Shown here one piece after another: positions 1-42,203 of a stretch of 64,000 bases of DNA (the stretch's first letter is position 1; each line of letters starts with the position of its first letter). A program made the translations under genes and the position numbers. This stretch comes from an uncultured Methanosarcinales archaeon (GTDB lineage: Archaea; Nanobdellota; Nanobdellia; Woesearchaeales; DATDXC01), in the NCBI GenBank assembly GCA_964510025.1, contig CAZDZV010000008.1:1-64000 (forward strand), in the 5' to 3' direction. The notes beneath the pieces were generated by a model. That model had not been told where the DNA came from, did no database searches, and saw only the letters and a list, made by a program, of their open reading frames with translations.

Positions 1-12
1 AAAGTAACAAGT

Positions 13-1234: not shown

Positions 1235-2367
1235 GATTCTATGGTAACGTTCGAATGCAATTCTATTATCCTGTTTACTCTTCTGTGAACATCCCGAAGG
1301 TCATCTGCAGCGTATGCCTTGGTAGTTAAGAATGTGTTGATTCCATCTTTGACATCCTGTTCAATTGCCTCATAGCTTGGGATATAGTACCCGAACTGTG
1401 CTTTGCACTGAGGATGAGTACCTACCCTTATATATGGTTCATAGAAAGCGTAATTTGCGGCATCGATAAAAAAGATAGGTGCATTATAGAAAGCAGCAAA
1501 CAATGATGCTATAAGGCTGGCTGGATTATCATCTTCGGTGTTAACCATGACTACATGCTCATACCTATACCAAAATGCGAAATATATGCTTTCCAGATTG
1601 TCAACCCTGATCATCTGATAGCCATCACCCAGGTCACAACAAGGCAGACCAGCGGGCAGACCATCCATGGTACATAAATCTTCATCCCATCCAAGACAGG
1701 GCAGACCAGGATCATCAAAAATAAAAGCATACGCTTTTTCATCGCTTATCAGCTCTGACTTAATCTGTCCAGAAGTAATCCCATCATCATCATAGTACAC
1801 ATTATAGGGGATCCTATGAAGTCCGCTGATATCGTACCATGTTCCGACAGGTATTAGCCTTAGCATATCCCGCTGATTGGTTCCGGTGTCTTTGATGAAC
1901 AAGGCACTGTTCTCCAGCAGACGCCAGTCTTTTGTGTTGTTTGTATAGACCCTAACAATCTGGCTCTCAGAGCCTATGGCGCCCTGGTCATTAATCACCT
2001 TAAGCGTAATGTTGTATTCCCCCGGCTCAAAATAGTAGTCAATAAACGACTCCTCTCTGTGGTCAATTATATTATCAGCGTCAATATCCCAGTAAAATCC
2101 CTTTATCTTATGCTTAAGGTCATAGCTTTGCGAGCCATCGAAAGATATATCCTGGAAAACGATATGTATATCGGAAGGCCTTGGCGAAGATATGACCGGG
2201 GTCGGCGGGACAGCATACTTTTTCAGCTCTTCTTCCATGCGTATTTCTGCTTCACCCATCCATGTCCTTATAGCTAGCAATATCAGGAGAAGCACAACCA
2301 GCGCTATTATGATTATCACAATCCACCTTACTGAGAGATCCATCGCAGCTTTCTTGTTTATCTCCAT
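1231..2367 (-). CDS. PKD-domain surface protein with class III (archaeal pilin-like) signal peptide
   Basis: Probable start MEINKKA-AMDLSVRWIVIIIIALVVLLLILL (basic KKA then a long hydrophobic run). PKD motif FDGSQSYD...YWDID...PGEYNITLKV. Late SLIASLFAAFYNAPIFF resembles a cell-wall-binding-2 type repeat. Start overlaps the giant gene stop. Confidence 0.75.
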   Translation of the reverse strand: MEINKKAAMDLSVRWIVIIIIALVVLLLILLAIRTWMGEAEIRMEEELKKYAVPPTPVISSPRPSDIHIVFQDISFDGSQSYDLKHKIKGFYWDIDADNIIDHREESFIDYYFEPGEYNITLKVINDQGAIGSESQIVRVYTNNTKDWRLLENSALFIKDTGTNQRDMLRLIPVGTWYDISGLHRIPYNVYYDDDGITSGQIKSELISDEKAYAFIFDDPGLPCLGWDEDLCTMDGLPAGLPCCDLGDGYQMIRVDNLESIYFAFWYRYEHVVMVNTEDDNPASLIASLFAAFYNAPIFFIDAANYAFYEPYIRVGTHPQCKAQFGYYIPSYEAIEQDVKDGINTFLTTKAYAADDLRDVHRRVNRIIELHSNVTIES

Positions 2368-5300
2368 TCTTGATAATACCCCCATACATCGTAGAATGTT
2401 GAGTCTTCTTCATCTCTTTTAGTCCAACTGGCATCCTTACAGGTTGCATCCACTATTACGTCCTCCAGATCATATGATGTTTCAAAGGTGCTCCAAGTCT
2501 CATCTATATCATCACCGCAGCAGAAGCTATGCGGATCTGTTGTAAATGGCACTAAAGAGCCTGCCCAGCAATATGTCCTTATTGTGTCACTGCAGTCATT
2601 TGTACCATCCGGTCTTAGGGCTCTTTCTACACCAACAAACCTACAGAAATATGCATCTTTATCTGCGTCATCTATATAGATAACATCACCGCTGCCTCCT
2701 TGCCTACAGCATCCTTTGTAGACATTATCTATCCAGCATTCATCAGCATCGTCGCCGCAGCATCCGATAGTTGTGTCAGCTGGCGGCGCATCCTGGTCCC
2801 AGCAATTAGTATCTCCAAATTCACTGCATATGCCATTATAGGTTTCTCCTATTGATATGAAATGATTCCTGCAGCTTAGCTCATTAAGGTCAGGGTTATC
2901 GCCGCAGATGTCTAATTGGTTACAGTTGCCATGCTGAGCAATAGTACCATTATCTCCACAGAGGGTTTGGTTCCATGGATATACGATACATGTAATATTT
3001 GGGCAGTGTGTTACATTAACTACATAATCGGGGGCTGCAAGCCAGGATCTCGCATGGCAGCCCGATGCGTTTATCTCCCATGTCTCGCACCCATTATCCC
3101 ACGGCAGATTGGTGAGATTTTCACCGATGCACCAAGGTAATTCCTTATCGTCACATACATTATCTTTATCTACATCATCACATATACAAACAGCATCATC
3201 ACAATAGTATGGCCAGATGCATTCCTGTTCCAGTAAAATCCCTCCTGCTTCCAGCTGATCGCAGTTTCCGGAGCCATCACATTTTGTTATGTTTGTCTGG
3301 CTTGTCACATTGCTGGTTCCTTTTCCAGATCCAATACATGAGTATCGTGTTTTTGTATCGCATACAGTATCTGAACCATTATAATTCGGCAGGGCATTGT
3401 CACAGTCTGCATCTGCTATTCCTCCGATGCCATCGCATGTCCTGTCTGCAAGATAGTACTCACATGATGTGCTCTTGTCGCAATGCACCTCTTCTACAAT
3501 ATCCGACGTGTCGTTATAGTAGATGAGCCAGCATCCTGTCTTCATATCAAAGCCTTCATAGATAGTGCAGGATTCATTTGGAGGTATATTATCTGCATCC
3601 TCATCCGGGCATTCATCTATGTATTCGCATGCATCATCTATGCCGTTTGCGTTCAGGTCAGTTCCAGAGTCAAAGACTCCAGGGCACATGTCGCAGGGCT
3701 GGTCATCTCCATATAATGTGGTGTAGATGCCTTCTGTAGCCCCATCCTGGTCAAAGTCTGCTTTTGCGCAGGTCCATCCCTGACCTGATGACGAAAGATC
3801 ATCGCAGACATAGAACACCTGCCTTGCTGAACGGCCTAAGTCCCCATCCTGATCACTGACTGAGACATGTATTGTGTACATCCCATCCCCACTCGGAGCT
3901 GCTACCATCCCGTCGCATATGCACGTATTGGATATTGACGTGGCAGCTATAGCGGCTGTCGCAACCTGGCTGCCCTCTCTTTCGATATATACATTACAGC
4001 TGTTTGCGCTAAATACATCTGCAGCTATAAACTCTACGTTTATCTCAATATTCTCACCAGACCTGAAGAAAGGCTTTTGCTTGCCGATTAGGGACAATAG
4101 CGAGTTGTTGACTGGTGATATGTCTATATTGAAGGTTTCCTCGTACTCCTGGCCCAGATTGTAGGCACCGTCCCTTGCCTGAGCCCGTATCTTATAGCTG
4201 CCCTCCTTGACCAGGTTAGACAGCCTATACCTGCAATTGCCGTCTGAGCTCTGGAGGAGGGTAGACTGGCTGTCAGGATCAATCACTTCAAATTGACATC
4301 TGCAGATGCTGGATGGATCCTGGGTTATCGCCCTAATATCCAGATAGCCATCATAATCAACTGTGATCTGCCCATCCCCTTCCCCTGTTTCTATATCAGA
4401 TACAGCAGGTGCGGTATTCTCATAAAGCCTTGTAGTCAAGGCCACACTTCCTCCGAGATCGCCCTCAGATGAGCGCTCACTTGTAGCCAACGGATAGGCA
4501 TGAGCTGGTTGCGCCACCCCTGGCGTCGAACATCTAAGAGTGATGTCGAAATCCTCAATATTATCAGCTACACTCTGGATATTGCCTGCCATGTTGTTCG
4601 GGCCTGGGCTCCATCTGAAGTCAGAGGCGTCAGGGCCTTCCAGCGAACACTGCGATGGATCAAATACAAACCTGGATGCTGGTTGGTTATCTATGCCTAT
4701 GGTGGCAAGGAAATAGCTGTATGTAGAGCTTCCGACCAACCTCAGCGTGTAATCATCATTTACATGCAGCCTGCTGTGGTATTCGTAGGTTATTGTTGTT
4801 CCTACGAGCTGGCCGCTGGCGACATAAGGTATGACTGTGCAGCTGGCTGTAGACCAGTCATCTGCGCAGGAATCGGATGAAGCACACTGGGGATCAGCAC
4901 AGTCTTTTCTTCCATCATTATGATTGTCAAATCCATCGCTGCAGAGTGTCTCACCATTAGGTTGGCACTGCTCTCCCTCTGGCCCGGCTGCTGAGACGCA
5001 ATCAGCGTCTGCGCAATCCTCCTTGTTGTCAGCGTCATTGTCAAAATTATCGTTGCAGGTTGATTCCTGGTTGAGCTCGCATCTCTGGCCCTGCTGGCTT
5101 CCAAGATCACCATCGCAATCGCTGTCCCGGCAGTCTTTTCCTGAATTATCGTTCCTATCATAGTTTCCCAAGCCGTCGTCTACGTCATTGTCTATGCCGT
5201 CAGCGCATGAGTCATAGGTGTAGTTTTCATAAGCCGGACATGGACCGCAGTACCCGAATGCCTGCCAGCAGTCTGTTTGATCAGTGGCATCACTGAAATA

Positions 5301-8300
5301 GCCATCTTCACAGTCAGTTCCAGCTTTGGCCGGCCTGGGCCTCAAATCAAAGTCAAAATCATTATCTTCCTGATCTGTGCAGAACCCATAGACATTTACG
5401 AGGAACTCTGAAGACATACAGACATCATCTGAGTCAGGATCCTTTACACCTGCGCAGTCAGGATCATTGCAGTCAATGCCTCCTGTATTGTCCAGGGCAT
5501 ATGAGTCTCCATCCCAGATGTACTGGTCAAGGTCATTATCAATATTATCGAAGCATGTTGCATTGTCAATGCCGTCATACTCTGTTACAGGGCAGCTTCC
5601 AAGCCCCCTGCAGTCATAGTCATCGCAGTCAGCTCCTGTGCTGTCCAATCCAGGATCAGGTATGAACAAGCCGAGCCAATTGTCGCTTCCACCCTGAAGA
5701 TATGAGTCATGATCATCATCTGCTCCGCCGGTGCATTGGTTTTCTCTTCGTGGACAAACCTCGCCAGCGCTGCTTAACGTATCGCTCTTGCCCCAGCATT
5801 CATAAGGATCATAGCAGTCGATCTGCCTGGTTTCGCATTCCTGTGGTGTGCTGCAGGTTATTGAGGGGCCGTAAGGTGTGCTGTCAGCATCATTATCAAA
5901 TCTATCCTCGCAAACAAATGCATCTATGCTGTATGATGAGCCTTCTGGGCTTTCACAATATACTGCCTGATTGCCTGTATCATATTTTCTTGGGACCCCA
6001 TTTCCATCAAGATATGCACCAATCTCTCCGAGGCAGTCTGAGTCAGCGCAATCTACAAGGCCGTCGCCGTCATTGTCGAAACCGTCATAGCAGGTCAGTT
6101 CCTGCTGGTGCTCACAGAGTATGGGATCTTCGTTTCCGGCTTTGCCTATCTGTATTCCGCTGCAATCCGTGTCCCTGCAGTCGATATAGTAGTCCAGGTC
6201 ATTGTCTGCATCATCATTGCACCTATGGTTTGATGTCTGGGTGCCTTCTATGAATTCAATCTGGTTTTGATAGAGGCTGTCATCATTTTCATTTGTATTG
6301 TCGGGAGCATCGCTATCCACAAAGAACCTCACTGCTTCAGGCGGCCCCTGCTCGCCATCCACTGATACAACGAGCTCAAATTCGTATTCGTCATCTGCCA
6401 AGCCAGCATAGTCTACATACATCACCTGGTCCACACTTTCCCTGTCTATTATCTCCTTGGTAGAATAAGAGCTTGTGGAACTGACATCCTCCTCCAGCTC
6501 AGTATAGCCAGGAGCAGGATTTCTGTATTTCCCAAATGCGCTGAATTCAGGGACATTGTTCATGGCAGTTAGGGTATATTCGCTCTGTGAATTGATCTGC
6601 CTGTCTATGTCAAACCTGACCTTGAGTCTGCCGCCGGGCAGAATATGCTGGGTATATGCGTAATCCACATTATAGACAGTCCCTGCCTTATTTACTGTGA
6701 TTCTTCCTTCACAGATATTATCCGTTCCGCAATTTTCAGGTGGCTGAGCGACCACTGCGCCCGTAAGCAGATTGCCTATCTCTGGCAGGTATGCAATGAT
6801 CGGATGCCTGCCATAATATCCTGAGCAGTTGTAGGCAATTCCCTGGCAGAACGGATCCTCTATGCAGTCTGTCTTGCTGTTGCCATCGTCATCAATTCCA
6901 TTGTGGCAAAGCTTCTCTAAATCAAATCCTTTTGCCATCATATTTCCTGCATAATCCTTGTCGCCTGCCCAATCGCATTCAACCTCATTTGCAAAGTAGA
7001 CGTTCTTGTTTCCTAGATAGCATTCCAGGGCTTTCTGGCCGTCGCCTTCTTTTCCATCATAGTTGCCAAAGCCAGTCCATGTATTGTTGTGGACATATAT
7101 CATCCTGTTTATGCCAGTTTCTTCAAATACTTCCTGTCCAGAATAAAGCCTGCAGGCCCTTATGAGCCAGGGCTTGTCTCTGCTTAGCTTGGCAGGGTCA
7201 AGGATCTCAGGACCAGGTATCACATAGCTCAACACTATCGGATCATCAGCAGCACCGCTGTGCTTTTCAGAAACAGTCATGAGAGTTCCGTCAGAAACCT
7301 CGATGTCGCATTCAACGTCTCCCGGAGCAGCATACGCTGAATTGAATGTTATCTCAAATCTGTGAAGATGCCTGTTGCTGAGAGGCTCCCCTGTCTCGCA
7401 GTCAACGTCATTTGGATCATCCACGTCTGCGCAGTAGTCTCCTCCATCACAGCATGTGGGCTCATATATACCATCCGGATAGGTGATATTGGCCCACGGT
7501 GCCGTTGCCCTGATAGTCAAGTTAACGCTCATCTTAGTGTCGCCAAACTCAAAGCCATCAGATGGAGTTATGCTGCAGGACCAATCTGAACCCACTGTGG
7601 TGTTTCCAAATCCTATTGTGGATATGTTTTCAAGCTCTGGATGCTCTGTTCCATTTATATACCACCTAATGGCATTAATAACAGCGTCTCCATTTTCGTC
7701 GAATGTGGATATATTATAGCAGGTTAGGTTCTCATAGCTGTAGTTTGTGCCATGGGTGGAGTTTATCTTGGGCTTGCCATGCGTGGGAGCTATGTTGGGC
7801 TCCATCCTGGTTAGAGGCAGCTCATCCAGATTATTTTCATCTATAACCATCGGTGAATCGCAGAAGCCGTCTCTTGGAGCATCATCTGAGCAGGTTTCAC
7901 TGAATCCTGTTCCGTCCTGGTTAGCCCAGTAGTTGCCGCCGGTATTCTGCTGGCCGATCATGTTTATACCGGGAGCAAAGGTGGTGTTCCATAGGTTAGA
8001 GCTGTCTATCACTTCCACGGTCGAGTTTATGAAGTTGTTATAGATCGAATTTTCATTTCCGAACGCTATATATATGTAGTTCAAATAAGAATCCCTGATA
8101 GTATTTCGCTCTGACCATGACGCATTTATGCTGATATGCGCATCTTCAGCAGTTATGTTCTGCACGAGATTTTCTGAGCTATGTACAAGCTTAATCTCAT
8201 TGTGGAATTCGCTGTTTGTGATGTTTGAATAGTTCGTCAGCATCAGTACAACAGCAGGCATATATTGGCTGTGAGAAGCAATAATGGTGCGGTCTATTGT

Positions 8301-11300
8301 TGAGTTATCGGCGTTGCACAATATTATCTGTGATGCGTTCCTGTCCCAGCCTATTATCTGGACAGAGCGGTTATAGTAGACTATCGGCATGATGCCTGTG
8401 ACGTTTTCTATTGTCTGGCTGCAGTCTTCAGCTGTAGCAGGTATTATCTCAAGGTTGTTCTGCTGGCTATCCAGTTCTAGACCTATGAGCTGGTTATGTG
8501 ATATTGTATGGCCTGTCGAAGCAGCTATCCTTATGCCTTTCAGGTTGCCTTCAAAGACAGAGTTCTTCACTGTGTTATTGGGGCTTTGCATCATATCGAT
8601 GCCAAGACCTGCACAATCAGAGATATTAATATTCTCTATAAGGTTGTGGCTGCTTTTTTCCAGTGCGATTCCTGCCTGGCCCCATTCTGTTACTGTACAG
8701 TTCTTGATCGTCAGGTTATTGGCGTTATCAATGCTTCCTTCTGCGTAGATCCCATAGCTTCCTGCAAGCCTTATGCCATCTATCTTGTTGCCCTGGCAGT
8801 CAAGAGAGATGCCTGCAGCTTTGACAGGGAAGCAGATATCTTCTGTGCTGTCGATGACATCTGCTGTCAGTATATAGGCGCCCTGCTCCTGATCCAGCAT
8901 CTGGCAGCGTGTCAGAGGGATATTGTCATGTATAAACAGCATGTTGCTGAGAAGCAAGCTGCCGTCATCTATCCCATCGTTCGGAAGCACGGAGCACTGC
9001 CATGCCTCTCCTGTTGCGGTTTCGTCCGAGACGATAAGGTCTGTCCTGTTCCTGTAGAGCGCGCTTATCTGCACTTCAGAGAGGGCTGTACTGTAGATGC
9101 TTATATCATCGATAAACCCATCAAAGTGATCCCCCATATCTGGTTTAGCCCCGATTATCAATGGAGCTTCAGATGGATCAATCTCCCCTGCAACAATATG
9201 GCTGTTTTCTAGATGCCCATCCAGATATATTCTTATTTCACTACCATCATATACTGTAAAAATATGGTACCATCTGTCTGTTTCCATAGTTGTAGAGACC
9301 TGCACTGTATATCTAGTTGAATCTATATATACAGATGACATCAGGATTTTTTCGGTAGATGCACCTCCAAGGTACAGTGAATAGCTATTTTTTGACAATA
9401 ACATAGATGATTCTTCTAGACTCCTGAACCTAAACCATCCCCCAAAGCTTATCTCACCTGCAGGATTCAAAGATGGCGAGTCCTCGATTCTGATGTAATC
9501 CATGTTGCCATCAAATTCATACGCGCCCCTATGGTCATATCCAGACTCATTGGAGCGGAGGGCGTTGAAAACAGTGCCGTTATTGCCGAATGCTGAATAA
9601 TCCCTTGCAAATACGGCGTTTGAGCTTCCTTCAAAAGGCATATTGAGGATCAATATGGGTTCGCCATCCCTATACCAGTTATATATGTATTTTATGGTGT
9701 CCTGGTCAAGGTCCACTGCATCCTGAGGTATGCATGTAAGGTTCTCTTTTTGTGAGTCCGTGCCATAGCTTGATGATAACAGCGGCGTTGAATGAGTGGG
9801 CCTGTGGTTGTCTCTGTCGCAGATATCGTCTATGCCGTCTCCATCTGTGTCTATCTTGGAGTTATTTTGGGCAGCACACATATCGCAAGGCTGAGGTATG
9901 CCGTAGATATCGGTCACCAGGCCCTCTGTATAGCTGTCCTGGTCAAAGTCTGCTTTTGCGCATGTCCATCCATCACCAGAAGAGCCAAGGTTGTCGCATA
10001 CATAGAATACTGTGGAATTTGTGACAAATTCGGAATCTTCTGTAGTTATTTCCAAGTGTATCCTGTATAGGCCATCACCGAAGTCTGCCTGTACAGAGCC
10101 GTTGCATATCTTAATATCAGGATTTTCGTCATCTATTACTTCCAGCTCAGCAGCTTCATCTCCACATAGTGCCCTGCAGCTGACTGGCAATCCATAAATG
10201 CCTGTATCGAACGAGGCATTTATGTAGATTATTTCAGCTGACCTGTAGAAAGGCTTGGCTTTGTCCAGCAATGGTCTTGGAGCTTTGGAGTCATCTGTGG
10301 TATAGCTGTCTCCGCATCTCACTGCATCTTCAAGAATAAATATCTCTCCAAGGCAATCTTGATCATCACAGTCTATGTCTCCATCATAATCATTATCTAT
10401 GCCGTCAGCGCATGAGTCATAGGTGTAGTTTTCATAAGCCGGACATGGACCGCAGTACCCGAATGCCTGCCAGCAGTCTGTGCCTAGTGCAGTATGGTAC
10501 ATATCTTCACAATCAATTATGTTCGGGCCTGGATCAGCGCTTCTTTCGCTGCTCCCATCATCATTGAATCCATTGTCACAGAACTGGTAGTAGCCAGGCA
10601 TGAATTCATTGTCCTTGCAGATCCTATAGCAATCTGAGTCATCACAGTCAATACTGCTGATCCCATCAGGGCTGTCAAGATCATTGTCAATCCAGTCACT
10701 GCATTGATGGAAAGCGTCATTTCCCTCTTTGTCCTGGTCTTCCCTGAGAGGGCAATTATCATCGCCGTAGCAGTCATAGTCTGTGCAGTCTATGCCGGTG
10801 TCCGGCCTCGTGTCATAGCTTGGAAGGTAGTTCCTATCCCAGTCATTATCTATGCCATCACTGCAGTCTGTCTCTGTAGATGGGCAGCCGGTGTCTTTTT
10901 TCCAGCAGTCATCCTGGTCTAAGCAGTCTGCATCACCATCCCTATTGTTGTCAAAGCAGTCATAGCAGATTGACTCAGCTTGAAATTCGCATACAGCATA
11001 TTCGCCTGTGCAATTCTTCCCACCTACTTCAAGATGGCATTCTTCGTCGCTGCAGTCCATCTTATAGTCTAGGTCGTTATCCAGCGTGTCATTGCAGTTA
11101 TGAATGTCGAAGGTGCTTGTCGAGTTTTCCAGCCAGTTGTCCGGAGCTTCAGTGGATATTGTCAGAGGAAGGTTTATCCTTGCGTTCTGGCCAATCAAAA
11201 CCAGCAGTTCAAATTCGTATGCACTTTCTTCATAGCCTGTCAGATTCACCCACATGACAAAGTCGTAGTGGTCTCCTAGGAAGGTATTTCCATCTGTGGT

Positions 11301-29300: not shown

Positions 29301-32300
29301 TATAGGCTGTTTCAACCAGCTTTTGGCTATAGTTCTCCAGAACCTGGCCTGTCTCATCTGTAGCAGCTATGTAAGCCCTATAAAGACCATCGCCGTTGCT
29401 GCTTGTAGACGCCTGCCAGCCGCCTGACGGAGATCTGGAGTTCCATATAGTATCCAGAGCAAGATAGTCCTGGGCGTTGATCCTTCTTCTTATTCCAGTA
29501 AGTGAATCATTGAGGAGTACAGCTTCGTTGACCCAATCCTGGCCGTCAAAATACTGTACCTTCATCATCAGGTGTACCTCCACATCATAGGAGCCAGCGT
29601 TTGATATCTTGCTCTGGTCCTGCTCAGGGATAGTCTTTGAAGAGTGCCCCATAATATACATAGGTTCTGAGAATTCAGCCAGGTACTGTTCATAATTCTC
29701 AACATACCTTACAGCTTCCTGGAGCAGGCTATCTTTTTCAGATGCGATAATAAATTTAGGATGGAGAGGATCAGCTACAGCAAGTATAACCTCATTGTCG
29801 TCATAAATCCAAGAGCCGATCATATCCTCAATCAATGGATTGCTTCCAGGGGTGCCTATGACAAGAAGCTTCTGATCAGTGGTGCTCTGGCTTACAGACA
29901 CTATCTCAGCTATTCCTGTAACCAATGAGAACTGATCTGCAGCAAATGCTTCATCCTCAGAAGGATCATCACCTGTCACTATCCTGTATTCCAAAGGATT
30001 TGAATAGATATCCTCTATCACTTGGTATATTGCGCTTATGTCACCTATTGGCCTTATGGTGTAGAAGCTGAAATGCTGCACGCTGGCAGTGTACATATCT
30101 TCTGCCGGATCGTAGGCTAGGCCACACTGCACACATGGCATCTCATTCCTGTAGACAGACGGAGATGTCATGGCACCTAATCCTGCGAATCCAAGCTTGG
30201 CAGGCTTACCTGACAGACCGGCGAGGCTCTCAGAGCTGAAGCCGATGCCGCTCGACTGAACAATCATATCTTCTCCTATGGGAAGCTTCCTTATGTCCAA
30301 GGGGCCTGACCATTCAACATAGCTGCCATCTGGGCCAGCCACCCTAAAATTTCTCGCGTAGCTTGGATCTCCATCCCAGCTGCAGTGGTAAATGCCGCAA
30401 TCAGGGCCTGTAGTGCCATATCCATCGTCTGCTGTACCATATAGATTTTCGCTCAAGGAGGCCAAGAAGCCATTTATTTGCTCCAATATGCTGTTTTGAG
30501 GCGGATCAGTTAGATTAATCCAATCTGCAATAGAGTATTCGTCTTTCAGTGTCTTTGCCTGTATTGTGAGATTATACTCCATGATCTTCGTGAAGTTGCA
30601 TATACCCAGGTTATCGGTAATATCCTTCTCTTCTTCACATGTATCGATTGTGGTGTCATCACCATCATTGCATTCGACAGGTGTTCCGCCGATGCAGTCT
30701 TCAGTTGGATCACAGGCTTCAGCCCCATCACACCAGAGACCGTTCTGGCAGATAGTATCATCAGGAGCGTGTATGATCTCATCATTTATCTCATCACAGC
30801 TGTCAATGGTGCAGCCAATCCCATCCTCAAGAATAGGGGGGGTGCCATCCTGACATTGTAGCTGGGCATTGCATGTTTCTCCTCCGTTGCAGAATAATCC
30901 ATCATCACAATCGGAATCTACAGTGCAATCCCCTCCTGCTAATGTAAAGAAATTCCACACATCACTCGTAATTGAATTTCCAATGCCGTCATCTACAAAA
31001 ACATACCATTCATATTCAGTGAGAGGATGCCTGGCAGTCCATTCATGGACAGCGTGGTCTCCGCTTGCTGTGCCTGCAAGAGTAGCCAAGTTAGTGAAAC
31101 CTGTGCTGTCCATATCATAATCAAGGAAAAATTCACTATCAGAATCTGTTTCAAACTGGCCAGTATAGGGAGAATAGGTCTGTACATAAATCTTATCTTC
31201 CGCTGGTACGAATTTCATTATACGCAGAAGTCCATTTCCACCTTTAGACCTGGCCTGATAGTTTGCCAGCAGCTGATGAACCGGCTTTCCATCCAAATTG
31301 CTGTCTGTTCTTCTGGATTCACCATCGTTCAGGTGCATATGGCCGCAAAGCACAAGCTGAAGATTTTCGTGATGACGTATGAGCTCATTCCAGATAAATG
31401 AAGTATCACCGCCATACCTGCTGCAGTCTCCTGTGTTGTCCAGCCTCTCTGCATTATCATTCAGATAGGCATGGGTGGTAAGCACAGCTTTCCTGTCTGC
31501 ATAGCTGCTTAAGATGTTGTTAGCCCATCCGATCTCATCTTCTGAGGGACAGAAGTCAATATTAAGGAATATGTAATCCTCTCCGCCGAGCGTCAATAGC
31601 TGGTAGTTGTTTGTGTTCTGATTGAAGCTTCCTCCCCAGTAATCCTTATCCTGGAACCTTGAAACAGGAAGATATTTCTCATAAAATGCAGTAGATGAGT
31701 CAGGGTCATCCTGGGTCTGATGGTCATGATCACCGGGTATGATTCCTATAGGCATATCGCCTTCTATGAGCTTCGTGAGGGTTGCGTTTGCCCTGTTCCA
31801 CTGTGTCAGGCTGTCCCAATCATCTACTATATCCCCCTCATGAAGAACCATCTCTATATTGAGCGTGTTGATGTTATCTATGATCCAGTCTACCTGGCTT
31901 CCAAATATATCCGGATAGTCCTGGACGTATTTCTGCGTGTCCGGAAGGACTATTATTGTGAAATTTTCGGTTTTCTGCCTGCCGAAAAAGCTTACATCCA
32001 TAGAGTTTCCTGCTGTGTGGGTGACATTCACAGCGAGCAAAGGAGACAGGGGGATATTTTCCGAACCATCTTCTGGATAGACCAACCTTACAATTGGGCC
32101 TGTCCTGTAGATGCATGCTCCAAGGTTGTCAGTTATGTCAATCCCCTCATCACATATATCTTCTGTTGATGGAATCCCGTCATCACAATCCACAGGAACG
32201 CCGAGCTGGCAACCTGCCAATGCATCGCACACCTCAGCCCCATCACACCACAAACCGTTCTGGCAGGCAGCATCATCTGGAGAATGGGTTATCGTATCAG

Positions 32301-35300
32301 TTGCTTCATCGCATGCATCCACAGTGCACCAGACACCATCATCCAATGCAGGAGAAGTACCTTCAAGACATTCTCCTGTCTCAAGATTGCATGTTTCTTC
32401 TCCGTTGCAATATAGACTATCATCACAATCGGCATCAGATGCGCAGCTTCCGGTTTCAATGGTGAAATTATAGTATGCTTCGATAGGATTTCCAGCCAGG
32501 CCAGTATAGACAACACCCTGGTCGTCTGTTGCAGCAACATAAGCCCTATAGAGCCCGGGGCCGAAACTGTTAGAAGATGTGGCCCAGCCGCCTTGAGGCT
32601 CTTTTATGTTCCAGATAAGATCGAGCGCCAGATAGCTTCCTGCTTCGACTGTTCTAGGCGTCCCTTCTGCGGCGTCATCAAAAAGCGTAGCTTCATCTAT
32701 CCAGCTGTCCCCATCAAATCGCTGCACCTTCATCAAGAAATAGACAGTCACATCATCGGCTTCATTGTTGGTAATCTTGCTCTGGTCTTCCTCGGGAATC
32801 GTCTTGCCGCTCTGCACAATGACATATTCTGCTGGAGAGTTGTACCATTCACCCTCTATCTTGACGCATCCGTAATATTCAAGCAGGGTGCCAAAATCAG
32901 AGAAATCAGGGGGCAATGTTATTGAGCATTCTATTGTGCCTTGATTATCATAGGCGCTGCACCCGCTGTTCAATTCTTCATTTGTATGCAGGTCATTGCA
33001 GCCCTCTGTTTTTACGTTGGCATTCCCAATATAGTAGTCATCAACAGCATCCTTCTTCAATGGATCTACGATGATATCATCCTTGATCACCTTGGTTGAT
33101 TCGTAGTCAATGTAAGTCGGTGAGCTGACAAGTTCTGATAAGGTGGTCCTGGGGCATGCAATCACAGGCCCTTCAGGTTCATCTGGTTCAGTGCCTGCCG
33201 GTATTATATTGCCGCAGAACCTGCATCCGGGGCCTGAGTAGTCTGCTGCACATAGCTGATAGGCATTCGGCATTTGGGCTCCGCCACCAGCTGAAAATAC
33301 ACCAGGTTCGATCTGTAGATTAGCTGAATCTGCATCAGCAGCGACCAGCACGGGATCTGGACAATGCTCAGGCTGCTCACCAAACTCAATACTGATGATT
33401 GTATCCGGCTCCAGATTAATGACCTTAAACCATGTGCCTTTTCTTATGGTTTTGTAGTTTGTTCTTAATGAGCCAGACGGCGGATCTGCCATTATCTTGC
33501 TTTGGGGGAAGATGCCGCATTCATCATATCCCCAGTTATTTGCAACAAAAAAAGTCACGCATGCAAAACCTGTCCCGTCAGCGGCGCCTACTTTCATGTC
33601 GAAATTCAGAAAACCATCGTTAGATGCAGCAGCAGCAGCCACATCATTCCCAAGATCAATATCCACAAATTCTGGATCCCCAATCTGATCCCAGCCGTCT
33701 TCGCCAAAGCGGAACAGCCCAACATCCTGGATATTGTTCAGCCTTCCTGCCCTGCCCTGCTGGTCTATAAATCCATAATAATCTATCTGTGTGTCCGGAT
33801 GCGGCTTAAGTTTTTGGCCGTCATCTGGATCATAGAAGAAAACCTCTATGGCAGATACAGGCACCATCCTCTCTTCATCAGTATCCTGGATATCGTAGGT
33901 GTTTATCTCATTGGTCATGTCTCTCAATACTGCCACCAGGTAGTCTTTTTCATAGTCGAGCCATTCTCCGTTAATCTCTTTCAGGAATCTGCTTCCGGCA
34001 GGTATGACTACCCTTGTTACGCCATCTGTGCAGCTTTCAGTCACCTGCGTATCGCCTGTCAGGGAGACTTCCTCAGCATCTGCAGGAGGAAGCCCTATCA
34101 TTGTGTCTGGCCCCCAATTGTTCTGTCCAGCGTCCAGTTCCTCAGCATAGGTTGCAAGGAAAGGATATTCTATGCCCTGCTGAAGCGCCACACTGGGCTC
34201 TATAGATGCGATGACTTTCATAGAATACTGCTGGTCTGCCATATAGCAGTTGCAGTTCGGGGGCTGTATGTAGTTAGATATGAAGAAAGAGAAATAACCT
34301 TGCGAGTCGGTAACAGCCCTCTCTATCTCTCTTTCTTCTCCCATCTCCTTCATCAGGACTACATCTGCGCCAGCTATCGGTATAATAGACGGGTCGTCAG
34401 GAGCCTTGAAAGAGCTATCTTCATTCATAGCAGAGGTCAGCACAATAATCCTGCCCTGAAGCCTGTTCTTCAGCTGCTGCGCATCGGAAATCAACATGGC
34501 ACCCATCGTACTTCCGCCAATAGTGGGATCTATGCTCCTCTGGTTAAGATAGTCCGCCGAGCATAACGGCTCTTCCAGCTCAGGAATATCCTGCCCCATG
34601 AAACTAACGCCGCCCGGTACAGGATCATACCCTGTTATTATCATACCAGGACCCCTGAAAAGGTTGGAAGCAAAATCATTCAGCATATTCCGGAAGATTT
34701 CAAAAAAGCCCTGTGTTTCTACAGGCGGATCAGTAAGGTTGACCCATTCTTCCAGCTGATATATGTCTTTGAGTGTCTTCGCCTGTATATCGAGGTCAAG
34801 CTGCTGTCCATACATTATTGAAAATTCATGTTGGTCCATAAGCGGACGGCCCCCAATGTCCTTCAGTACATGGCCGCTGGAGTTATGGACTGAGACAGTC
34901 GCCCTGTATAGGCCAGGCCCCACGCCTTCTGTCGTATCCCATCCAATCACATTCCACATCGTATCCAGCGGGATTACCTGGTGGGAATTAATCTCCCTTT
35001 TTGCAGATGCAGCCAGATCGTCGGCAATATCCTTGATTCTTACCCAGGAACTGCCATCATAATAGTCAACACCCATCTTGATATAGACCGGAATGTCCTC
35101 CACGTCTTCATTTTCCAGCTTTGACTGGTCTGCATCAGAAGTTGTCTTGATCCCATCACAGTAATGAGATGCTGAAGCAGCATGTGCAGCTATCGTATCC
35201 GGCGCCAGGGCAGTATTATAGATGGCAACCTCATCGATATTGCCGTTGAAAAATGATGGATTTATGTCCATATGGATGCTGGCTCCTATCCACATATGGT

Positions 35301-38300
35301 CCCAGCCAGTATAGCTGGTCTGCAGCATTTCCAGGTCAAATGTACTGTCCATGTTGCCGTCCAGGAACAGGGATAGGTTATCTGCAGCATTGTCATAAGT
35401 GACAGCTATATGGTGCCACTCATCTAGGCTGATTTCTGCATCTCCCATCATGTAGGTTCCAAAGACAGGACCATACACATTTCCTCCGCAGTCTGTGCAG
35501 AAGAATATCCTGTTATCCCTGATACCAAGCAGATATGCCTGCCTGTATACAGACATGCGCTTTGCAGCGATAGTTGCCCAATTGTCATTTCCATACTGGC
35601 CTTGGTGCTTTACCCAAGCCTCAATTGTAAGGTTATCCTGTATGTTGAGGCCCAGGGGATCTACATCTGTGCATAGTTTCCAGCCGTCTTCTGTCCTCAG
35701 CCCATTTTTAACCCTGCCCTCCTCACCGAGATAAGCGTCACAAACAAGGTCATTATTGTTAGAGGAGTCTTTAGCTATGCTGCCTTCTTTCTCGTCAAAT
35801 TTCCAGTAGCTAACCAATGAGTCTGGATTGCAGATCTCTTTTTTGCAGTCCAAAGCACATCCATCTCCGCTGAACCCATTGCCATCGTCACATTGCTCGC
35901 CGTCGTTGAGGATACCATCCCCACAAGGCCCAGCATCTGAAATTACCATCCCCTGAGGCGGATCTGTCAGCATCACTGTCTCTCCCATCTGGTACAAATC
36001 CTTAATTGTCCTGATTTGCACAGAAAGATTTGCAGCTTCGCTATAATACAGTGTCCTGTTGCCTGAGATGTTGGTATTGCTGTCCAGTGTGCAGCTGGCC
36101 CAATATTCATATGGTATGCCTTCCATAAGATCCGGCACTGTGAAGTCTGCCCATGTATCCGGACCGTTGTTATGCACATTCATCGCATAGTTTATCAAAG
36201 GCTTGAAGTTCTGCACAGATGTTCCTGATACCCCGTTGATGCTGCAACTCTGCCCGTGATCAGCCACTCTTGACGCTTCTACAGGAGCGCCTGTTCCGCA
36301 ACCTTCAAGCCCAGGACACTCCAGTATGTTAGCGCAGTTACCTGTGCCTTTGTCCACGTAGAAATCCGCCAGCCCTGTAAAGCCTTCAGCTGCTGTATAA
36401 GGCCCTGCACGGAACCCCTTTTCCACTGTTATCTGGTTAAAATCCAAGTCAGACTGGCTGAAGTCATGCACAAATTCTATGAGCGGCTTTTGGCTGTTTT
36501 CATCAAAGATCCTGATAAGATATGCTCCTTTCAGGTTTCTAACCCTTGTCCTGTCTGGGTCACCATAGCCTATGTAAGGGACAGGGACCATATCGGTGCC
36601 ATCACCGTAATATTCCCTAATATTATCAACTGTCGATGTCTGCACATATCCGATTATATCGTTGCCAGAAGTCCCGGTGCAGGCTATATGGTCCTCGCAA
36701 TATGTTTCATCGCAGCAATCAATGATGTCATTGCAATCGATCAGACCATCTTCATCTTCATCCACTGTGCTGTCGCAAACCTCGGGCGCAGGGCAGATTC
36801 CTTCCCCGTTGCAGTACGCAAATTCGCAGCAGTCTACATCATCACAGTCAATCACACCATCACAATCATTATCCTGTCCGTCATTGCAGCTTGTCTCTTT
36901 TGCTTCCTCTCCAGCGGTAGGCGAGCAGTCCAGCTCATCACAATAACCCCCTGTTGTCTCTATCTTAAGTGTATTGTATGCACCTCCGCCTATATGCCCT
37001 CTGGCAGATGTTGATGTGGCTACCGTCACTGTATTTTTTGTCCTCACAGTCTCAGGATCCAAATCAAGCACATATTCACCTACAACATTGGTGTTGGACC
37101 AGACCTTTATCAGCTGGCCGTTAAAGTATACAACCGTATCCCTTTTGCCCAGATTTGCGGTTCCTGGAGAGAATGCAATAACAAGCTTTGCATAGCCTTT
37201 CACAGGAATAAGCGGCTCAGGGACATCAAGCTCAATGGTGTAGACAGGATGATTTGGACAGACAAGGCCCCATGATGACACAGTATGCAGGGTCAACAAG
37301 GGAAGCTCTGGCCAGTCTATATTATCTGGCACAGTGTAGGTTAAGTCTATGGTCTTCTGGAATGTTGCGGCGCCAACCTCTATCTGTGCAGTCCCCGCAG
37401 GTGTATTTGGCATTGCAAAGAAGTATGCCGTGAAGCTGACACTCTGTCCAGGTTCCAGCCTATATCTTCCCAGTTTGGGCTTAAGATAAAGGTATTCTGC
37501 TAATTCGCCTTTTACACTCACAGTAAGGTCTGTAAGCACCTCCAGGCCAGTATTTGTTATGGTAAATTCCTTTCTTGTGTCGAGGCAGATTTGCCCGGCC
37601 TCACTGGCACCAGGCATTATAGCTATATCCCACAGCTGGCTGGGAGAGATATCAAAGTTATAGTTGGTTGGGTTGATCTCCGGAAGGTTAACTGTTATTG
37701 TAGTGGGCTCTATTACCTCTTCCAGGCAGGACTCTATCGAAAGGTCAAACCTGACCTGGTCTTTGTCCCATACCTCATCAAGCATCGCACCATAGATGAA
37801 TTCACCTGTCTGCTCAGGCTGTATCACTCCCGGGTATTGCGTGGAAAAAACGCCTTTGCCGCTTATCTCAGGCACATCAGCAGCTTTGATGATTCCCTTA
37901 ACATCAAAGGCAGACTCATACAGGTGCTGGTTTTCGACCAAAACAGACCCCGTCATCCTGTCCCGATGACCATCCTGCTCCAGATCTGCGGAAGCCAGAT
38001 GAAGGTCCCCAACAGTGCACTCAAACTCGAAATTATCACAGTCTGCTGCGCAATTTTCCTTGTTCTCTCCTGCAGCGCATTTAGCGTCTCCACATACAGA
38101 GCAGGAAGATGTGTCAAAGCCACATTCATCGGTGCAGCTCAAGGTTCCCCCATAAGAGTTGTAAACCTGAGTTTCGCAGCTTTCTCCATTCAGGTTTGCC
38201 CCATCGCAGTCCTCATCAGAGTCTATCTCACCGTTTCCACAATCTGTCCCATAGGGCTCATCAGCTATCCCGTACAGATTGCCGGGATTGAAAAGAGAAG

Positions 38301-40254
38301 CAAAAAAATTCCTAATGCCCTGCCAAAGACCAGTTTCCTGCCCGGGCAGCGGAGGATCCCAGTGCAGTGTGCAGGAATCTACATTTTTATTTACACTTAT
38401 ATTTACAGTAGCTTCGCCTGTATGCAGTATTGAGCCATTTGCAGGTGTCGGCTCGATAAATCCTATCCCAATATCCTGACCTGCACACAGATATTTGCCC
38501 TGCCCGTAGTTATAATGATCTGATATTTCATCTGGTGTAAGTGCCTTGCTCCAGACAGCCAGCTCGTCAATCGAGCCTTTATATTTGGCTCCCAGGAGAC
38601 TGTCGGCTCCAACAAACATATCAGCAGCTATATCTATAGCGCCTGGTTTCTGCTTGACGTCATCCTGAAGCTGGCCATCAACATACAGCTTTATCGTGCC
38701 ATCTGCCTCCCTGACACCAACCAGATGCTGCCATCTATCCTGCAGCACTGCACTGTTGCTCTTTACGCCGAGACAGGAGCCTACAAAAACATACCAATAC
38801 CAGTCATTGCCATATTTGGTGAGATAGTAGCCATCACCGGCACAGGATTCTCCGACTACCCTGTAGGCCAGCCTTCCGATGGGCTTGGATAAATCCGGCT
38901 TTGCCCACATTTCCACGGAAAATTCATCCTGGAAATTGAGATCAGCAGAATGAGGGATGGTTATGTAATCCTGGTTTCCGTCAAAGCTAAGCGCATAGTT
39001 TCTTTTTCCTCCAGAATCTATCCAAACAGCATCTGCTATAGTGCCATGATTGCTGTTGCTCGTCCAGTCGTGAAGTATGCTGCCGGTATTTGTGTCGAAC
39101 CGGTAGTAGGCTACCAAGCTGTCAGCGTCGCAGACCTCGTAGTCGCATGTGGACGAACATCCATCCCCATCAGCTAGATTGCCATCGTCGCATTGCTCAC
39201 CTGCATCAATATTGCCGTTGCCGCAGCAGAGCTCATCAGATCCATCGCAATCCTCGTCTATCCCATTATCGCAAACCTCAACTGCTCCGGGATATGTGTT
39301 TGGATCAGCATCATTGCAGTCTATTTGCGATAGATTGGCAAAATGCTCTATATTATAATATCCTGATGGACAGCTTGCCTGGCTGACTACTGTTCCATCT
39401 GAGTAAAGGTCATTATCCTGGTCCTTGTAGCAGAGCTGGCTGTCTGAGCTTAGTTGATAGCAGAAGCTTAGCGGATGGTCTAACTGATAATGAGCAGTCT
39501 GCGTATTTATGGGGCAAACAACTGTTCCTGGACCGTTGTAGTTCCCAGGATTACAGCCCGAAGTACCTCTACACTCCACTTGTGCTATTGTATCAAGGAG
39601 CTCTAGGCTCTGATATCCCTTTGGGCAGGGAAATCCAGAAGCGGCCCTGTATCCAACTACCCTATTTTGCTCTTTTCCCATACCATACATGCCGCCAAAA
39701 TGAATCGGCTCATCGCCAGTATAAGGTCTTATGCAGTAGTAGCTTAGCCTGTCAACAGAAGCACCAGCCATACCTGTCATAAATATCCTCTTGAAGCCAT
39801 CAGGGCAGCTATAGTAATCTGTTGCCGGATTCTCCTTGCCAGGAGGCATCTTCATCCTAGCTCTTCTCATCCAAGGTTCCCAGTCAATCGTGGGCTTTTC
39901 ACCGTACATACCCCCAAAATCATAAATCCCCCCTGATCCGTCCCACGGCTTGATGCAATAGTATAGGGATACATCCCCTCCCCATATAGGCTGAAAGCCT
40001 TCCTGCAGGCAATTGATTCCTGGAATAGATGTGGGGTTGGCTCCCCATGCCTGATGGGCTGTATACCCATCAGGACAGGAACATTCACCAGTTGCAGGAT
40101 TTCGAGTCATGCATCTGCCTATGGGTGCAGAATTCCTGTTGGTCGAATAAACGCCTCCAAAATAATAAAGCTGAGCAGAGAAGACTGCTGGAAGGACCAG
40201 TGCTAGTATGGCTATCCATATGCCTATTGATTTATTGCACACTCTTTTTTTCAT
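2358..40254 (-). CDS. Giant secreted Cys/Asp-rich multidomain surface protein, at least ~12,600 aa (one gene across a scaffold gap)
   Basis: The ORFs of 7464 and 5223 aa meet at the 100-N gap, and the same repeat unit lies on both sides. Sec-type signal MKKRVCNKSIGIWIAILALVLPAVFSA. Contains LamG x3, Ig-like (Big_2-type) repeats, a metallophosphoesterase, a NosD-like beta-helix, TSP3-like and disintegrin-like repeats, and dozens of D-x-D-x-DG-xx-DC-x-D-x-x-C repeats. Confidence 0.88.
5191..5273. repeat. 83-bp identical dispersed repeat, copy 1 (others at 10396-10478 and 24509-24591)
   Basis: Direct reading: tctatgccgtcagcgcatgagt...gcctgccagcagtc is identical in all three places. Confidence 0.9.
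17700..18440 (-). repeat. Array of disintegrin-like ~32-aa Cys repeats (CRxxxGxCDxxExCxGxxxxCP)
   Basis: CRAADKICDIEEFCTG, CRTSNGDCDPEEKCTG, CRNAEGVCDIPEVCDG, CRDADGDCDVAEFCTG and others. Confidence 0.85.
17894..17993. other. Assembly gap (100 N) inside a 192-bp tandem repeat
   Basis: Run of exactly 100 N. 17994-18048 equals 18186-18240, and about 17839-17893 matches 18098-18152. Confidence 0.97.
31110..31968 (-). other. Calcineurin-like metallophosphoesterase domain within the giant protein
   Basis: Ordered motifs LPDTQ, HEGDIVD, PGDHDH, TTH, LCGHMH. Confidence 0.85.
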
Positions 40255-41339: not shown

Positions 41340-42203
41340 CTAAATTAATATGAACAATACATTGCCATATGCTAATGTTACTATGAATGCGATAAGGAAA
41401 CTTGGAATAAACGGAATACCTTCTTTTATCAGGACTTTGTTTAGCTTCTTTGAGCGATAAAGCTTCAGCAATTTTTTAATCTGTTTTTTGGATATACCCA
41501 GATCTTTCGGTCCGCAGATATATTTTCCTTTGATTTTTATTTCATTGCCTATCCAGTCACCTTCTGTCAGCTCTGTAGGCTTCACGTATTTATACATGCA
41601 GGCCTTTTCTATTATCTTAACATACAACCAAACATAGTAGAACAGAAGAACCATCATCACAAATATTGCCAGAAATCTTAGCAACAAATCCTGGGTTATA
41701 AATAAAATAAAAACAGCAACCAGAAGCAAAGATACCAAGATGGTATTTATCACCTTATTTTTTTCAAAAATCTTTTTTGATTCTCTTGCAAATTTCTTCC
41801 TGTTCTTAAGAGCTAGAAAAACACTCCAGATAATCCCATAAAAAGCCCCTGTAAGCAGGACATTTATCAAAAAAGACAGGAGAGAAAAGCTCTGGTAATT
41901 CAGGTTAAATATGTCCAGGCCAATGAGCGCTCCGATTGCCATTATCATCTTGGAGTCACCGCCGCCCCACTGGCCAGTATAGAACATGCCGAGAGCAATC
42001 AAAAGGCAAAGCAAAAAACCTGCAATACTGTTAACGATATAGCCCCATGTTTGGAATATTATCGAAGCAAAAAGGTTGACAGCAAATCCAGTGGCTATCA
42101 GGCTAAAGTTAAGCCAATCAGGAACTTCCCTTGTTTTCATGTCAGTAAAGGAAGCTACGACTAATCCTATGAATACTATTATCAGTATTGTCAAAACCAC
42201 CAC
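41340..42203 (-). CDS. A24-family prepilin/preflagellin peptidase (FlaK/PibD-like)
   Basis: Multi-TM protein with catalytic TDMKTREVPD and GGGDSK motifs; C-terminal IPFIPSFLIA. Confidence 0.9.
   Translation of the reverse strand: MVVLTILIIVFIGLVVASFTDMKTREVPDWLNFSLIATGFAVNLFASIIFQTWGYIVNSIAGFLLCLLIALGMFYTGQWGGGDSKMIMAIGALIGLDIFNLNYQSFSLLSFLINVLLTGAFYGIIWSVFLALKNRKKFARESKKIFEKNKVINTILVSLLLVAVFILFITQDLLLRFLAIFVMMVLLFYYVWLYVKIIEKACMYKYVKPTELTEGDWIGNEIKIKGKYICGPKDLGISKKQIKKLLKLYRSKKLNKVLIKEGIPFIPSFLIAFIVTLAYGNVLFILI

Follow-up and report, generated by a model that had tools for sequence, protein, structure and literature searches.

A giant Woesearchaeal gene interrupted by a scaffold gap and its likely product, a modular cell-surface protein

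Two very long open reading frames (ORFs) that face one another across a run of undetermined letters may represent two adjacent genes, two unrelated contigs that were wrongly joined, or a single giant gene which the assembly failed to close. This question is raised by a 64,000-nucleotide (nt) stretch of contig CAZDZV010000008.1 (assembly GCA_964510025.1), hereafter referred to as the window, in which the minus strand is open from 40254 down to 2358 apart from an N run of exactly 100 letters (17894-17993). In the current study, we find that window 2358-40254 (minus strand) is almost certainly one gene broken by a 100-N scaffold gap, and the explanation that we consider likely for the locus as a whole is that this single gene encodes a Sec-exported, modular surface fibre or adhesin of a Woesearchaeota-type DPANN archaeon.

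The upstream open stretch (17994-40254, minus strand) specifies 7,420 amino acid (aa) residues without a stop, beginning MKKRVCNKSIGIWIAILALVLPAVFSAQ, and the downstream stretch (2358-17891, minus strand) specifies 5,177 aa followed by a stop codon. The ORF listing gave 17860..40254 (7,464 aa) and 2358..18029 (5,223 aa), both on the minus strand, the gap-side ends of which are artefacts since the frames were read through the N run. In DNA of 46% G+C, open frames as long as these (22 kb and 15.5 kb) cannot be the product of chance. The gap lies within an array of 32-aa disintegrin-like Cys repeats, the last units of which form a near-identical 64-aa (192-nt) higher-order repeat, and it is because of this near-identical tandem repeat that the assembly broke. 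Direct letter comparison revealed that 17839-17893 is identical to 18098-18152 and 17994-18048 to 18186-18240; position 17893 thus corresponds to 18152 and 17994 to 18186, and the missing piece is therefore 18153-18185, that is 33 nt, or 33 + 192n. Codons start at positions equal to 0 mod 3 in the upstream part and 2 mod 3 in the downstream part. One base of a codon remains at 17994 and two remain at 17893-17892, so that the length of the true gap has to be divisible by three, as 33 + 192n is. The minimum length is thus 22,261 + 33 + 15,536 = 37,830 nt, or 12,609 aa and a stop codon.

The sequence-only reading of this locus had proposed two huge ORFs around a 100-N gap, a missing piece of 33 nt (or 33 + 192n) that keeps the frame, a minimum of 37,830 nt or 12,609 aa, and a signal peptide in the upstream part only, with no real start in the downstream part. 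The coordinates, the N run and the sum were reproduced, the register was borne out both by the identity of the flanks with the neighbouring copy and by a public contig holding exactly 33 nt (below), and the joined protein has a single hydrophobic segment, at residues 5-27 (19-residue windows, mean Kyte-Doolittle hydropathy above 1.6). The downstream part opens in the middle of a repeat (NSTSDVCRDADGDC...) and its first Met is not followed by a signal peptide. Tandem Repeats Finder, run over the gene, returned no repeat other than one of 27 nt in 2 copies, and none at the gap, where the N run splits the array. The protein database carries only a 5,172-aa half of the giant.

Public data allowed the gap to be closed in silico. 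Three sequencing runs of one microbial-mat study (X1, X2 and X3), kept as Logan contigs (k=31), contain the flank, and the assembly may derive from one of them; their contigs were placed on window 16800-19200, and the repeat (17,839-18,240) was assessed at 90% likeness or more. In X1 and X2 only four unitigs, with overlaps of 30 letters, were found across the repeat: L (ending at 17868), ABC (18098-18240), M (18019-18127) and R (starting at 18211). These permit a single path, L-(ABC-M)m-ABC-R, which is a simple loop, each turn of which adds 192 nt already open in the frame of the gene. In X3, where the organism or a near relative is present at low depth, a record of 272 nt (record 13) equals 17787-17838 + 18098-18185 + 17994-18125 without mismatching letters or gaps; since 18098-18152 is identical to 17839-17893, this record consists of left flank (107 nt), the predicted 33 nt and right flank (132 nt). 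The bridge is in frame, and neither a stop codon nor a frameshift, either of which would have spoken against the single gene, is seen there in these contigs. Unitig depths were 12.9 (X1) and 23.3 (X2) for ABC and 14.2 and 15.4 for M, as compared to 5.6-6.9 and 5.2-6.5 for the flanks, which suggests that the loop is present in about one to three copies (m). The gap would accordingly measure 33, 225 or 417 nt and the protein 12,609, 12,673 or 12,737 aa, following the formula 12,609 + 64(m-1) aa.

These data also bear on whether contigs of different loci or strains, ending in the same repeat family, were mis-joined into one scaffold. Such an error is conceivable in that both ends lie inside a repeat, the genome was binned from a metagenome, and the runs that hold the sequence all stem from one study and possibly include the source of the assembly. 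However, in two runs the loop of the unitig graph can be entered at a single point and left at a single point, the repeat is absent from all other contigs of the 33-contig genome, and the G+C fraction is uniform from one side of the gap to the other (0.46-0.49). Moreover, a relative of the same family (G003) places the N-terminal and C-terminal neighbours around one giant gene: its contig C20 carries an orthologue (46% identity) of the 268-aa protein encoded directly upstream of the giant, then a giant's signal peptide and N-terminus running off the end of the 3.7-kb contig, while its contig C150 carries a 4,793-aa C-terminal fragment, then an orthologue of the 384-aa protein encoded directly downstream and two HIT genes, as in the window. 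The contiguous frame of C150 aligns across the gap (aa 3652-4093 with 7212-7585, and 4071-4171 with 7405-7505 at 39% identity). We therefore regard a mis-join as very improbable, the least probable of the alternatives considered here.

The positional orthologue in G003 is itself split over C20 and C150, both of which break in one and the same near-identical Cys-rich repeat (CDVNAHCDGTCV.D.GNGGSCDEHSDCSSGHCQNGFCC), and its length is therefore at least 5,341 aa. No match to the first 900 aa of the giant was obtained in its 548-aa N-terminal fragment (tblastn, E <= 1e-3).

Further support for a single gene is provided by the content of the two parts. Self-comparison in 400-aa windows revealed five diverged super-modules of approximately 1,300 aa (25-59% identity), two upstream and three downstream of the gap, and the presence of modules of one family on both sides argues for one gene, as does the occurrence of uninterrupted giant frames in the same genome (10,021 aa) and in the same order (10,855 aa). 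The remaining alternative, in which the upstream protein ends and a second begins inside the gap, draws on the fact that the gap hides sequence, on a separate 5,503-aa protein of G003, residues 1475-2834 of which are 40-55% identical to module 3, and on another relative (G256), where the interval between the upstream-like and downstream-like genes contains three separate secreted proteins. Yet the hidden sequence would have to supply a stop, a start and a signal peptide, whereas the three runs show only identical copies of the open 192-nt repeat, one contig bridges the gap with 33 in-frame nt, and the downstream part begins mid-repeat without a signal peptide; two genes are thus improbable, if somewhat less so than a mis-join.

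The joined protein of at least 12,609 aa has a mass of about 1.38 megadaltons and an isoelectric point of about 4.05, and contains 4.5% Cys, 11.2% Asp and 130 N-x-S/T sequons. From the N-terminus, the signal peptide is followed by a Cys-rich region with a MopE-type motif, LamG 1, a myxo-type Cys-rich acidic repeat (DUF4215 / TIGR02232) that precedes LamG 2, the metallophosphoesterase, a Big_2 array and modules 1 and 2; then come TSP3 repeats with the disintegrin-like array that holds the gap, module 3, a second, related Big_2 array (about aa 8880-9290 of the joined protein), module 4, LamG 3, the beta-helix, module 5 and the C-terminal domain (Table 1). A domain-by-domain comparison with profile hidden Markov models, which had been proposed as a check, yielded LamG, Big_2, metallophosphoesterase, beta-helix, disintegrin-like and NF033662 matches, with LamG, metallophosphoesterase, disintegrin and NF033662 scoring above their cut-offs. 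Laminin_G_3 (PF13385) was found in two stretches of the first 3,750 aa (E 9.9e-46) and in a third copy (E 3.2e-25), all above the 27.6-bit cut-off, and the acidic double-disulfide repeat (NF033662) scored 121.4, 73.5, 56.5 and 53.3 bits in four pieces of 1,000-1,120 aa (cut-off 41). Disintegrin (PF00200) reached its score in four stretches of window 17995-18654, the best of which cover profile positions 46-75 or 19-75 and not the full 75-position domain. The integrin-binding loop of disintegrins is of the RGD type, and no RGD occurs in the 32-aa units; in view of this and of the partial profile cover, the repeat is best described as a disintegrin-like Cys pattern.

Each super-module begins with a beta-sandwich (A), a CHDGxDND motif, a second beta-sandwich (B) and about 10 acidic double-disulfide repeats, and continues with more beta-sandwich and Ig-like domains, a conserved FYVCD...GW.C..DFDQDG motif and TSP3 repeats; in module 1 this latter part comprises a beta-sandwich, two Ig-like domains, the motif in the form FYVCD..SSGxGWxC..DFDQDG..TEG and the TSP3 repeats. 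Domains A and B (481 aa) were aligned with 18 relatives, four of them the protein's own copies and 14 from other genomes, and an AlphaFold2 model was obtained (mean predicted local distance difference test (pLDDT) 83.9, predicted template modelling score 0.77). Foldseek against the PDB matched this model to tandem beta-sandwiches of integrin alpha legs, of the MSCRAMM adhesins SdrG and FnBPA, of SdrE, of RbmA and of cohesin. The module profile retrieved 3,679 cluster representatives at E <= 1e-3, 1,229 at <= 1e-10 and 227 at <= 1e-30 among 1.84 billion, a part of the weaker matches covering only the Cys-repeat end of the profile, and matches at E <= 1e-10 occurred in 21 of the 301 sampled genomes of the order. 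Bearers are mostly of 1,100-7,300 aa with one or two modules; the search for longer relatives with the 1,201-aa module covered proteins of 2,103-5,000 aa. A feature search with module 2 gave a best score of 0.79, below the useful range. The five super-modules arose by ancient duplication and belong to an unnamed family.

With no hydrophobic segment beyond the signal peptide, the giant has no membrane anchor of its own, and its gene overlaps two membrane-protein genes that flank it. Its last residues (approximately 190) form a Cys-rich domain with CCGDD..ECW and CCGDD..ETW motifs and 16 invariant columns in six aligned sequences, a profile of which matched 23 of the 301 genomes of the order; in relatives, the open frame that bears this domain ranges from about 367 to 3,165 aa. 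In 15 of the 21 loci examined from published genomes, the next gene downstream, on the same strand, encodes a homologue of the 384-aa partner protein (four of these 15 went into building the profile, and three of the six misses are at a contig end), so that the pair is conserved, and this in many families. The partner consists of a conserved N-terminus, a PKD domain and a CWB2-like alpha/beta domain. In all six aligned members the N-terminus reads KK[AGS]xxxLS followed by about 22 hydrophobic residues; class III signals of archaeal type IV pilin-like proteins combine a basic residue, a Gly/Ala cleavage site and a hydrophobic helix, and are processed by an A24 peptidase. The model of the partner (pLDDT 78.5) has a long N-terminal helix (residues 8-57), and its PKD domain superimposes on that of ColH (Z 12.8).

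Residues 158-377 of the partner are predicted to carry the CWB2 fold. When compared with CWB2 regions of Clostridioides difficile by VIA-align, they matched Cwp6 (5j72_B; Z 10.8, root-mean-square deviation 3.4, 184 residues aligned), Cwp8 (5j6q_A; Z 10.5) and SlpA (7acz_D; Z 9.0), while Foldseek with the partner model retrieved 5j72_A at E 2.3e-4. In C. difficile, CWB2 modules hold surface proteins on a wall polymer. The archaeal protein shares the fold of the C. difficile proteins (Cwp6 5j72, Cwp8 5j6q, SlpA 7acz), but differs in that the module is on a separate membrane-anchored protein and in that about two repeats, not three, are aligned; we know of no archaeal ligand of a CWB2-like module. 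A complex prediction for partner residues 46-384 with the C-terminal domain returned scores of 0.02 and 0.00 against a mark of 0.32 and is uninformative either way.

The 268-aa protein encoded upstream of the giant has two hydrophobic segments with TSP3 repeats between them and a Gln-rich tail, and homologues were found in three of the five genomes searched (G003, G256 and G004), adjoining the cassette in all three.

Taken together, these features would suggest that the giant is exported via the Sec pathway and that its C-terminal domain docks on the co-transcribed, membrane-anchored PKD/CWB2-like protein, thereby holding the giant on the cell, while the remainder projects as a disulfide- and Ca2+-stiffened fibre, the giant itself probably binding Ca2+ to judge from its repeats. 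We infer from the domain types that it acts as a cell-surface fibre or adhesin reaching a host cell or a substrate, the LamG, beta-helix and disintegrin-like parts binding glycans or proteins of either, and the metallophosphoesterase and beta-helix might contribute an enzymatic role as well. The translationally coupled upstream TSP3 membrane protein would belong to the same cassette. The gene may, however, be single and its product not an adhesin, serving either as a protective or matrix coat, which has been proposed for halomucin, or as an enzyme-bearing scaffold that attacks a host envelope, which has been proposed for giant Omnitrophota proteins. The strong acidity, the 130 sequons and the lack of a membrane anchor once the signal peptide is removed would fit such a role, as would the Metallophos domain and a beta-helix of the polysaccharide-lyase kind, and the available part of a preprint (10.1101/2023.11.21.568195) ties giant genes to cell-wall degradation. 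Since the enzyme-type domains make up less than 5% of the length, the bulk consists of lectin, Ig-like and Cys-repeat modules typical of adhesins, and the conserved membrane partner speaks for a protein that stays on the cell, we consider this unlikely, although appreciably less so than two genes or a mis-join.

A number of points weigh against the single-gene adhesin that we favour. As regards the gene, the repeat copy number is left at a range because no single read or contig spans the whole array; the bridging record, a graph contig (k=31) of the same study with a depth of 4.4, is thus neither independent nor a physical molecule; and as contigs drop rare variants, they may have missed a minor allele with a stop. 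The architecture is not conserved, given that in the G003 orthologue the C-terminal domain follows the disintegrin array almost immediately and modules 3-5 are absent, and the genes of 680, 2,153 and 722 aa in the G256 interval demonstrate that a multi-gene layout exists in relatives. As regards the function, the adhesin role is drawn from domain types and gene neighbours, that is, from DNA only; most of the 12.6 thousand residues are without a Pfam match, none being obtained at E <= 0.01 in 39 of 63 overlapping 300-aa pieces; template modelling scores on the query of 0.18-0.20 indicate that domains A and B have a generic adhesin-like fold and no specific relative; and at the level of sequence CWB2 (PF04122) stays below threshold in the partner (best E 0.016, in three of six members). 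The differences among relatives do imply that such genes clearly gain, lose and shuffle modules.

Table 1. Position of the giant gene, its parts and adjoining genes in the window
Feature	Residues or description	Position	Strand	Basis or remark
Whole giant gene	ATG at 40254, stop codon 2358-2360	2358..40254	-	100-N gap within
Scaffold gap	100 N	17894..17993	.	true content 33 nt + 192(m-1), m = 1-3 by unitig depth
N-terminal signal peptide	aa 1-27, MKKRVCNKSIGIWIAILALVLPAVFSA	40174..40254	-	Sec-type reading by eye
LamG 1 (Laminin_G_3)	aa 425-578	38521..38982	-	Pfam profile match
LamG 2 (Laminin_G_3)	about aa 1536-1690	35185..35649	-	Pfam profile match
Calcineurin-like metallophosphoesterase	about aa 2800-2975	31333..31851	-	PF00149, E 5.5e-6, 27.4 bits, cut-off 21.5
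Big_2 Ig-like array	about aa 3600-4480	26815..29457	-	Pfam and window comparison
Super-module 1	aa 4493-5760	22975..26778	-	self-comparison; NF033662 121.4 bits, cut-off 41
Super-module 2	aa 5940-7140	18835..22437	-	first 481 aa modelled, pLDDT 83.9
Disintegrin-like Cys repeat array	32-aa units, CRxAxGxCDxxExCxGxSxxCPxD	17778..18420	-	PF00200, 96.2 bits, cut-off 35.1
Super-module 3	joined aa 7598-8910	13458..17396	-	downstream of gap
Super-module 4	joined aa 9288-10124, shortened copy	9816..12326	-	
LamG 3 (Laminin_G_3)		9063..9512	-	Pfam profile match
Right-handed parallel beta-helix	Beta_helix / NosD	7911..8819	-	Pfam/NCBIfam matches
Super-module 5	joined aa 10894-12190	3618..7508	-	57-59% identity to module 1 over about 800 aa
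Cys-rich C-terminal domain	last ~190 aa; CCGDD..ECW and CCGDD..ETW	2361..2930	-	conserved
Downstream partner gene	384 aa; N-terminus KKAA-x-x-LS + hydrophobic helix	1231..2385	-	overlaps giant's end by 28 nt
Upstream gene	268 aa	40251..41057	-	TGA overlaps giant's ATG (ATGA)
Peptidase_A24 / FlaK-like prepilin peptidase gene		41340..42203	-	282 nt upstream of 268-aa gene, 1.1 kb upstream of giant

Concerning its size, the sequence-only reading had set the protein above halomucin (~9,200 aa), and it is indeed longer; halomucin is nevertheless an outdated yardstick, as predicted archaeal proteins of 24,483, 20,155 and 13,237 aa exist. The former two are from Ca. Altarchaeota and the latter from Ca. 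Bathyarchaeota, and the same list (PMC11573180, supplementary file 2; all 78 'archaeota' rows, the figures being UniProt predicted proteins) holds several entries of 10,000-10,800 aa and a Woesearchaeota maximum of 10,670 aa. At 12.6 thousand residues or more, the giant exceeds this maximum and would thus be the longest Woesearchaeal protein relative to that list, but not the longest archaeal one. The protein is real and very large, yet it sets no size record and belongs to a class, that of huge archaeal surface proteins, which has been surveyed before.

According to the available text of PMC11573180, Laminin_G_3 occurs in nearly all of the archaeal proteins above 5,000 aa, the function of which is not understood. 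The giant resembles these proteins in being archaeal, above 5,000 aa and equipped with Laminin_G_3 near the N-terminus and again later, and Woesearchaeota are well represented among them, whereas the five super-modules of ~1,300 aa and the pair of C-terminal domain and partner are not described in the portion of that paper available. Halomucin of Haloquadratum walsbyi (9,159 aa; PMC4378361, available in part) is likewise an archaeal giant that is secreted and has an N-terminal signal sequence, but is described as mucin-like and surrounding the cell, while the protein studied here, compared with it by description only, carries LamG, Ig-like and Cys-rich modules and belongs to DPANN. The accessible part of PMC10266531 calls a nanohaloarchaeal protein of 9,409 aa the largest in cultivated archaea; this 'SPEARE' protein (SVXNc_0300) is also a DPANN cell-surface giant with Ig-like arrays, and host binding is proposed for it there. 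SPEARE giants have a VirB4/TraG-like ATPase domain and are called membrane-anchored in that text, in contrast to the giant reported here, which has no second hydrophobic segment; no ATPase family was detected in it at E <= 0.01, either in the 63 overlapping 300-aa pieces searched with Pfam or with NCBIfam. The preprint cited above (10.1101/2023.11.21.568195) mentions, in the part available, few archaeal genes encoding more than 10,000 aa, mostly from Asgard archaea, and fragmentation at repeats. Its Omnitrophota giants of the dockerin/TSP3 type share with our case an ultra-small or host-dependent prokaryotic owner, Ca2+-binding repeats and short-read fragmentation at internal repeats; they differ in being bacterial and larger (30,000 aa or more), a comparison likewise made by description only.

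The most useful lead from this locus is not size but the super-module and the pair of C-terminal domain and partner, both of which are conserved and unnamed. The pair formed with the PKD-CWB2-like protein may explain how giant proteins devoid of an anchor stay on DPANN cells. It is tempting to go further and to view the C-terminal domain, the transmembrane PKD-CWB2-like protein and the TSP3 membrane protein as an undescribed Woesearchaeales anchoring cassette for cargo of ~400 to more than 12,000 aa, which here would carry the largest Woesearchaeal protein on record, a 1.38-MDa fibre with five copies of the super-module, as a main instrument of contact with a host or substrate; we advance this as a tentative idea that may well prove wrong. 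The locus further illustrates that gene callers split such giant genes and that a scaffold gap in one of them can be closed in silico from public contigs.

The organism, judged from its genes, is a Woesearchaeota-type DPANN archaeon with a small (1.7-Mb) genome. The window encodes archaeal L7Ae, S28e, aEF-2, aEF-1alpha, S10 and TYW3, and the metagenome bin comprises 1,703,912 bases in 33 contigs (97.69% complete, 0.95% contaminated), in keeping with the small-genome archaeon that had been suspected. EF-2 retrieved 28 loci at 58-83% identity, 18 of which are titled Woesearchaeota or Nanoarchaeota (12 Ca. Woesearchaeota and 6 Nanoarchaeota/Nanoarchaeia), one 'archaeon' and nine 'uncultured Methanosarcinales', and the named relatives of the giant are Nanoarchaeota or Woesearchaeota. 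The nine third-party records of metagenome-assembled genomes titled 'uncultured Methanosarcinales archaeon' encode EF-2 proteins 65-82% identical to that of this genome, and by this measure their title looks like a wrong or placeholder label. The giant gene amounts to 2.2% of the 1.7-Mb genome, a share that indicates heavy surface investment by a reduced DPANN archaeon.

Other giant genes were observed in the same genome and order. The genome itself contains a second giant as an uninterrupted 10,021-aa ORF (contig C2:117658-147723, minus strand) and an ORF of 5,182 aa (C4:84435-99983), and its 16 ORFs of at least 1,500 aa sum to about 8.9% of the genome. The uninterrupted 10,855-aa open frame (G006:C1) is from another family of the order and shares only TSP3-type repeats with the giant. 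In a further relative (G034:C7:15000-50428), a giant gene appears as two open frames (3,434 and 7,548 aa) on a single strand and is likewise broken near an N run, so that the same assembly problem may conceal a further protein longer than 10,000 aa.

Several neighbouring genes deserve mention. The nearby A24 peptidase gene had led us to consider a type IV pilin-like N-terminus for the giant, which was ruled out by its n-region, h-region and small-residue c-region (VFSA, with cleavage before Q) and by the Sec-type N-termini of its relatives; in neither of the two relatives inspected (G003:C20 and G256) does this peptidase gene adjoin the cassette. Two tandem HIT-domain genes (window 1-714 and 707-1234, plus strand) converge on the cassette, and the same pair follows it in G003:C150. 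A 691-aa protein (window 43693-45768, minus strand) matches Beta_propel (PF09826, E 2.8e-167) and its N-terminus ends in a lipobox-like LLLSAC. Finally, a secreted protein of 1,709 aa with Cohesin, Lamin-tail, cadherin-like, Big_9, PKD and CARDB domains (window 57771-62900, minus strand) adjoins a protein of 327 aa that carries TSP3 repeats together with a type I Dockerin (window 62993-63976, minus strand), and these two neighbours possibly constitute a cohesin-dockerin pair in a DPANN archaeon.

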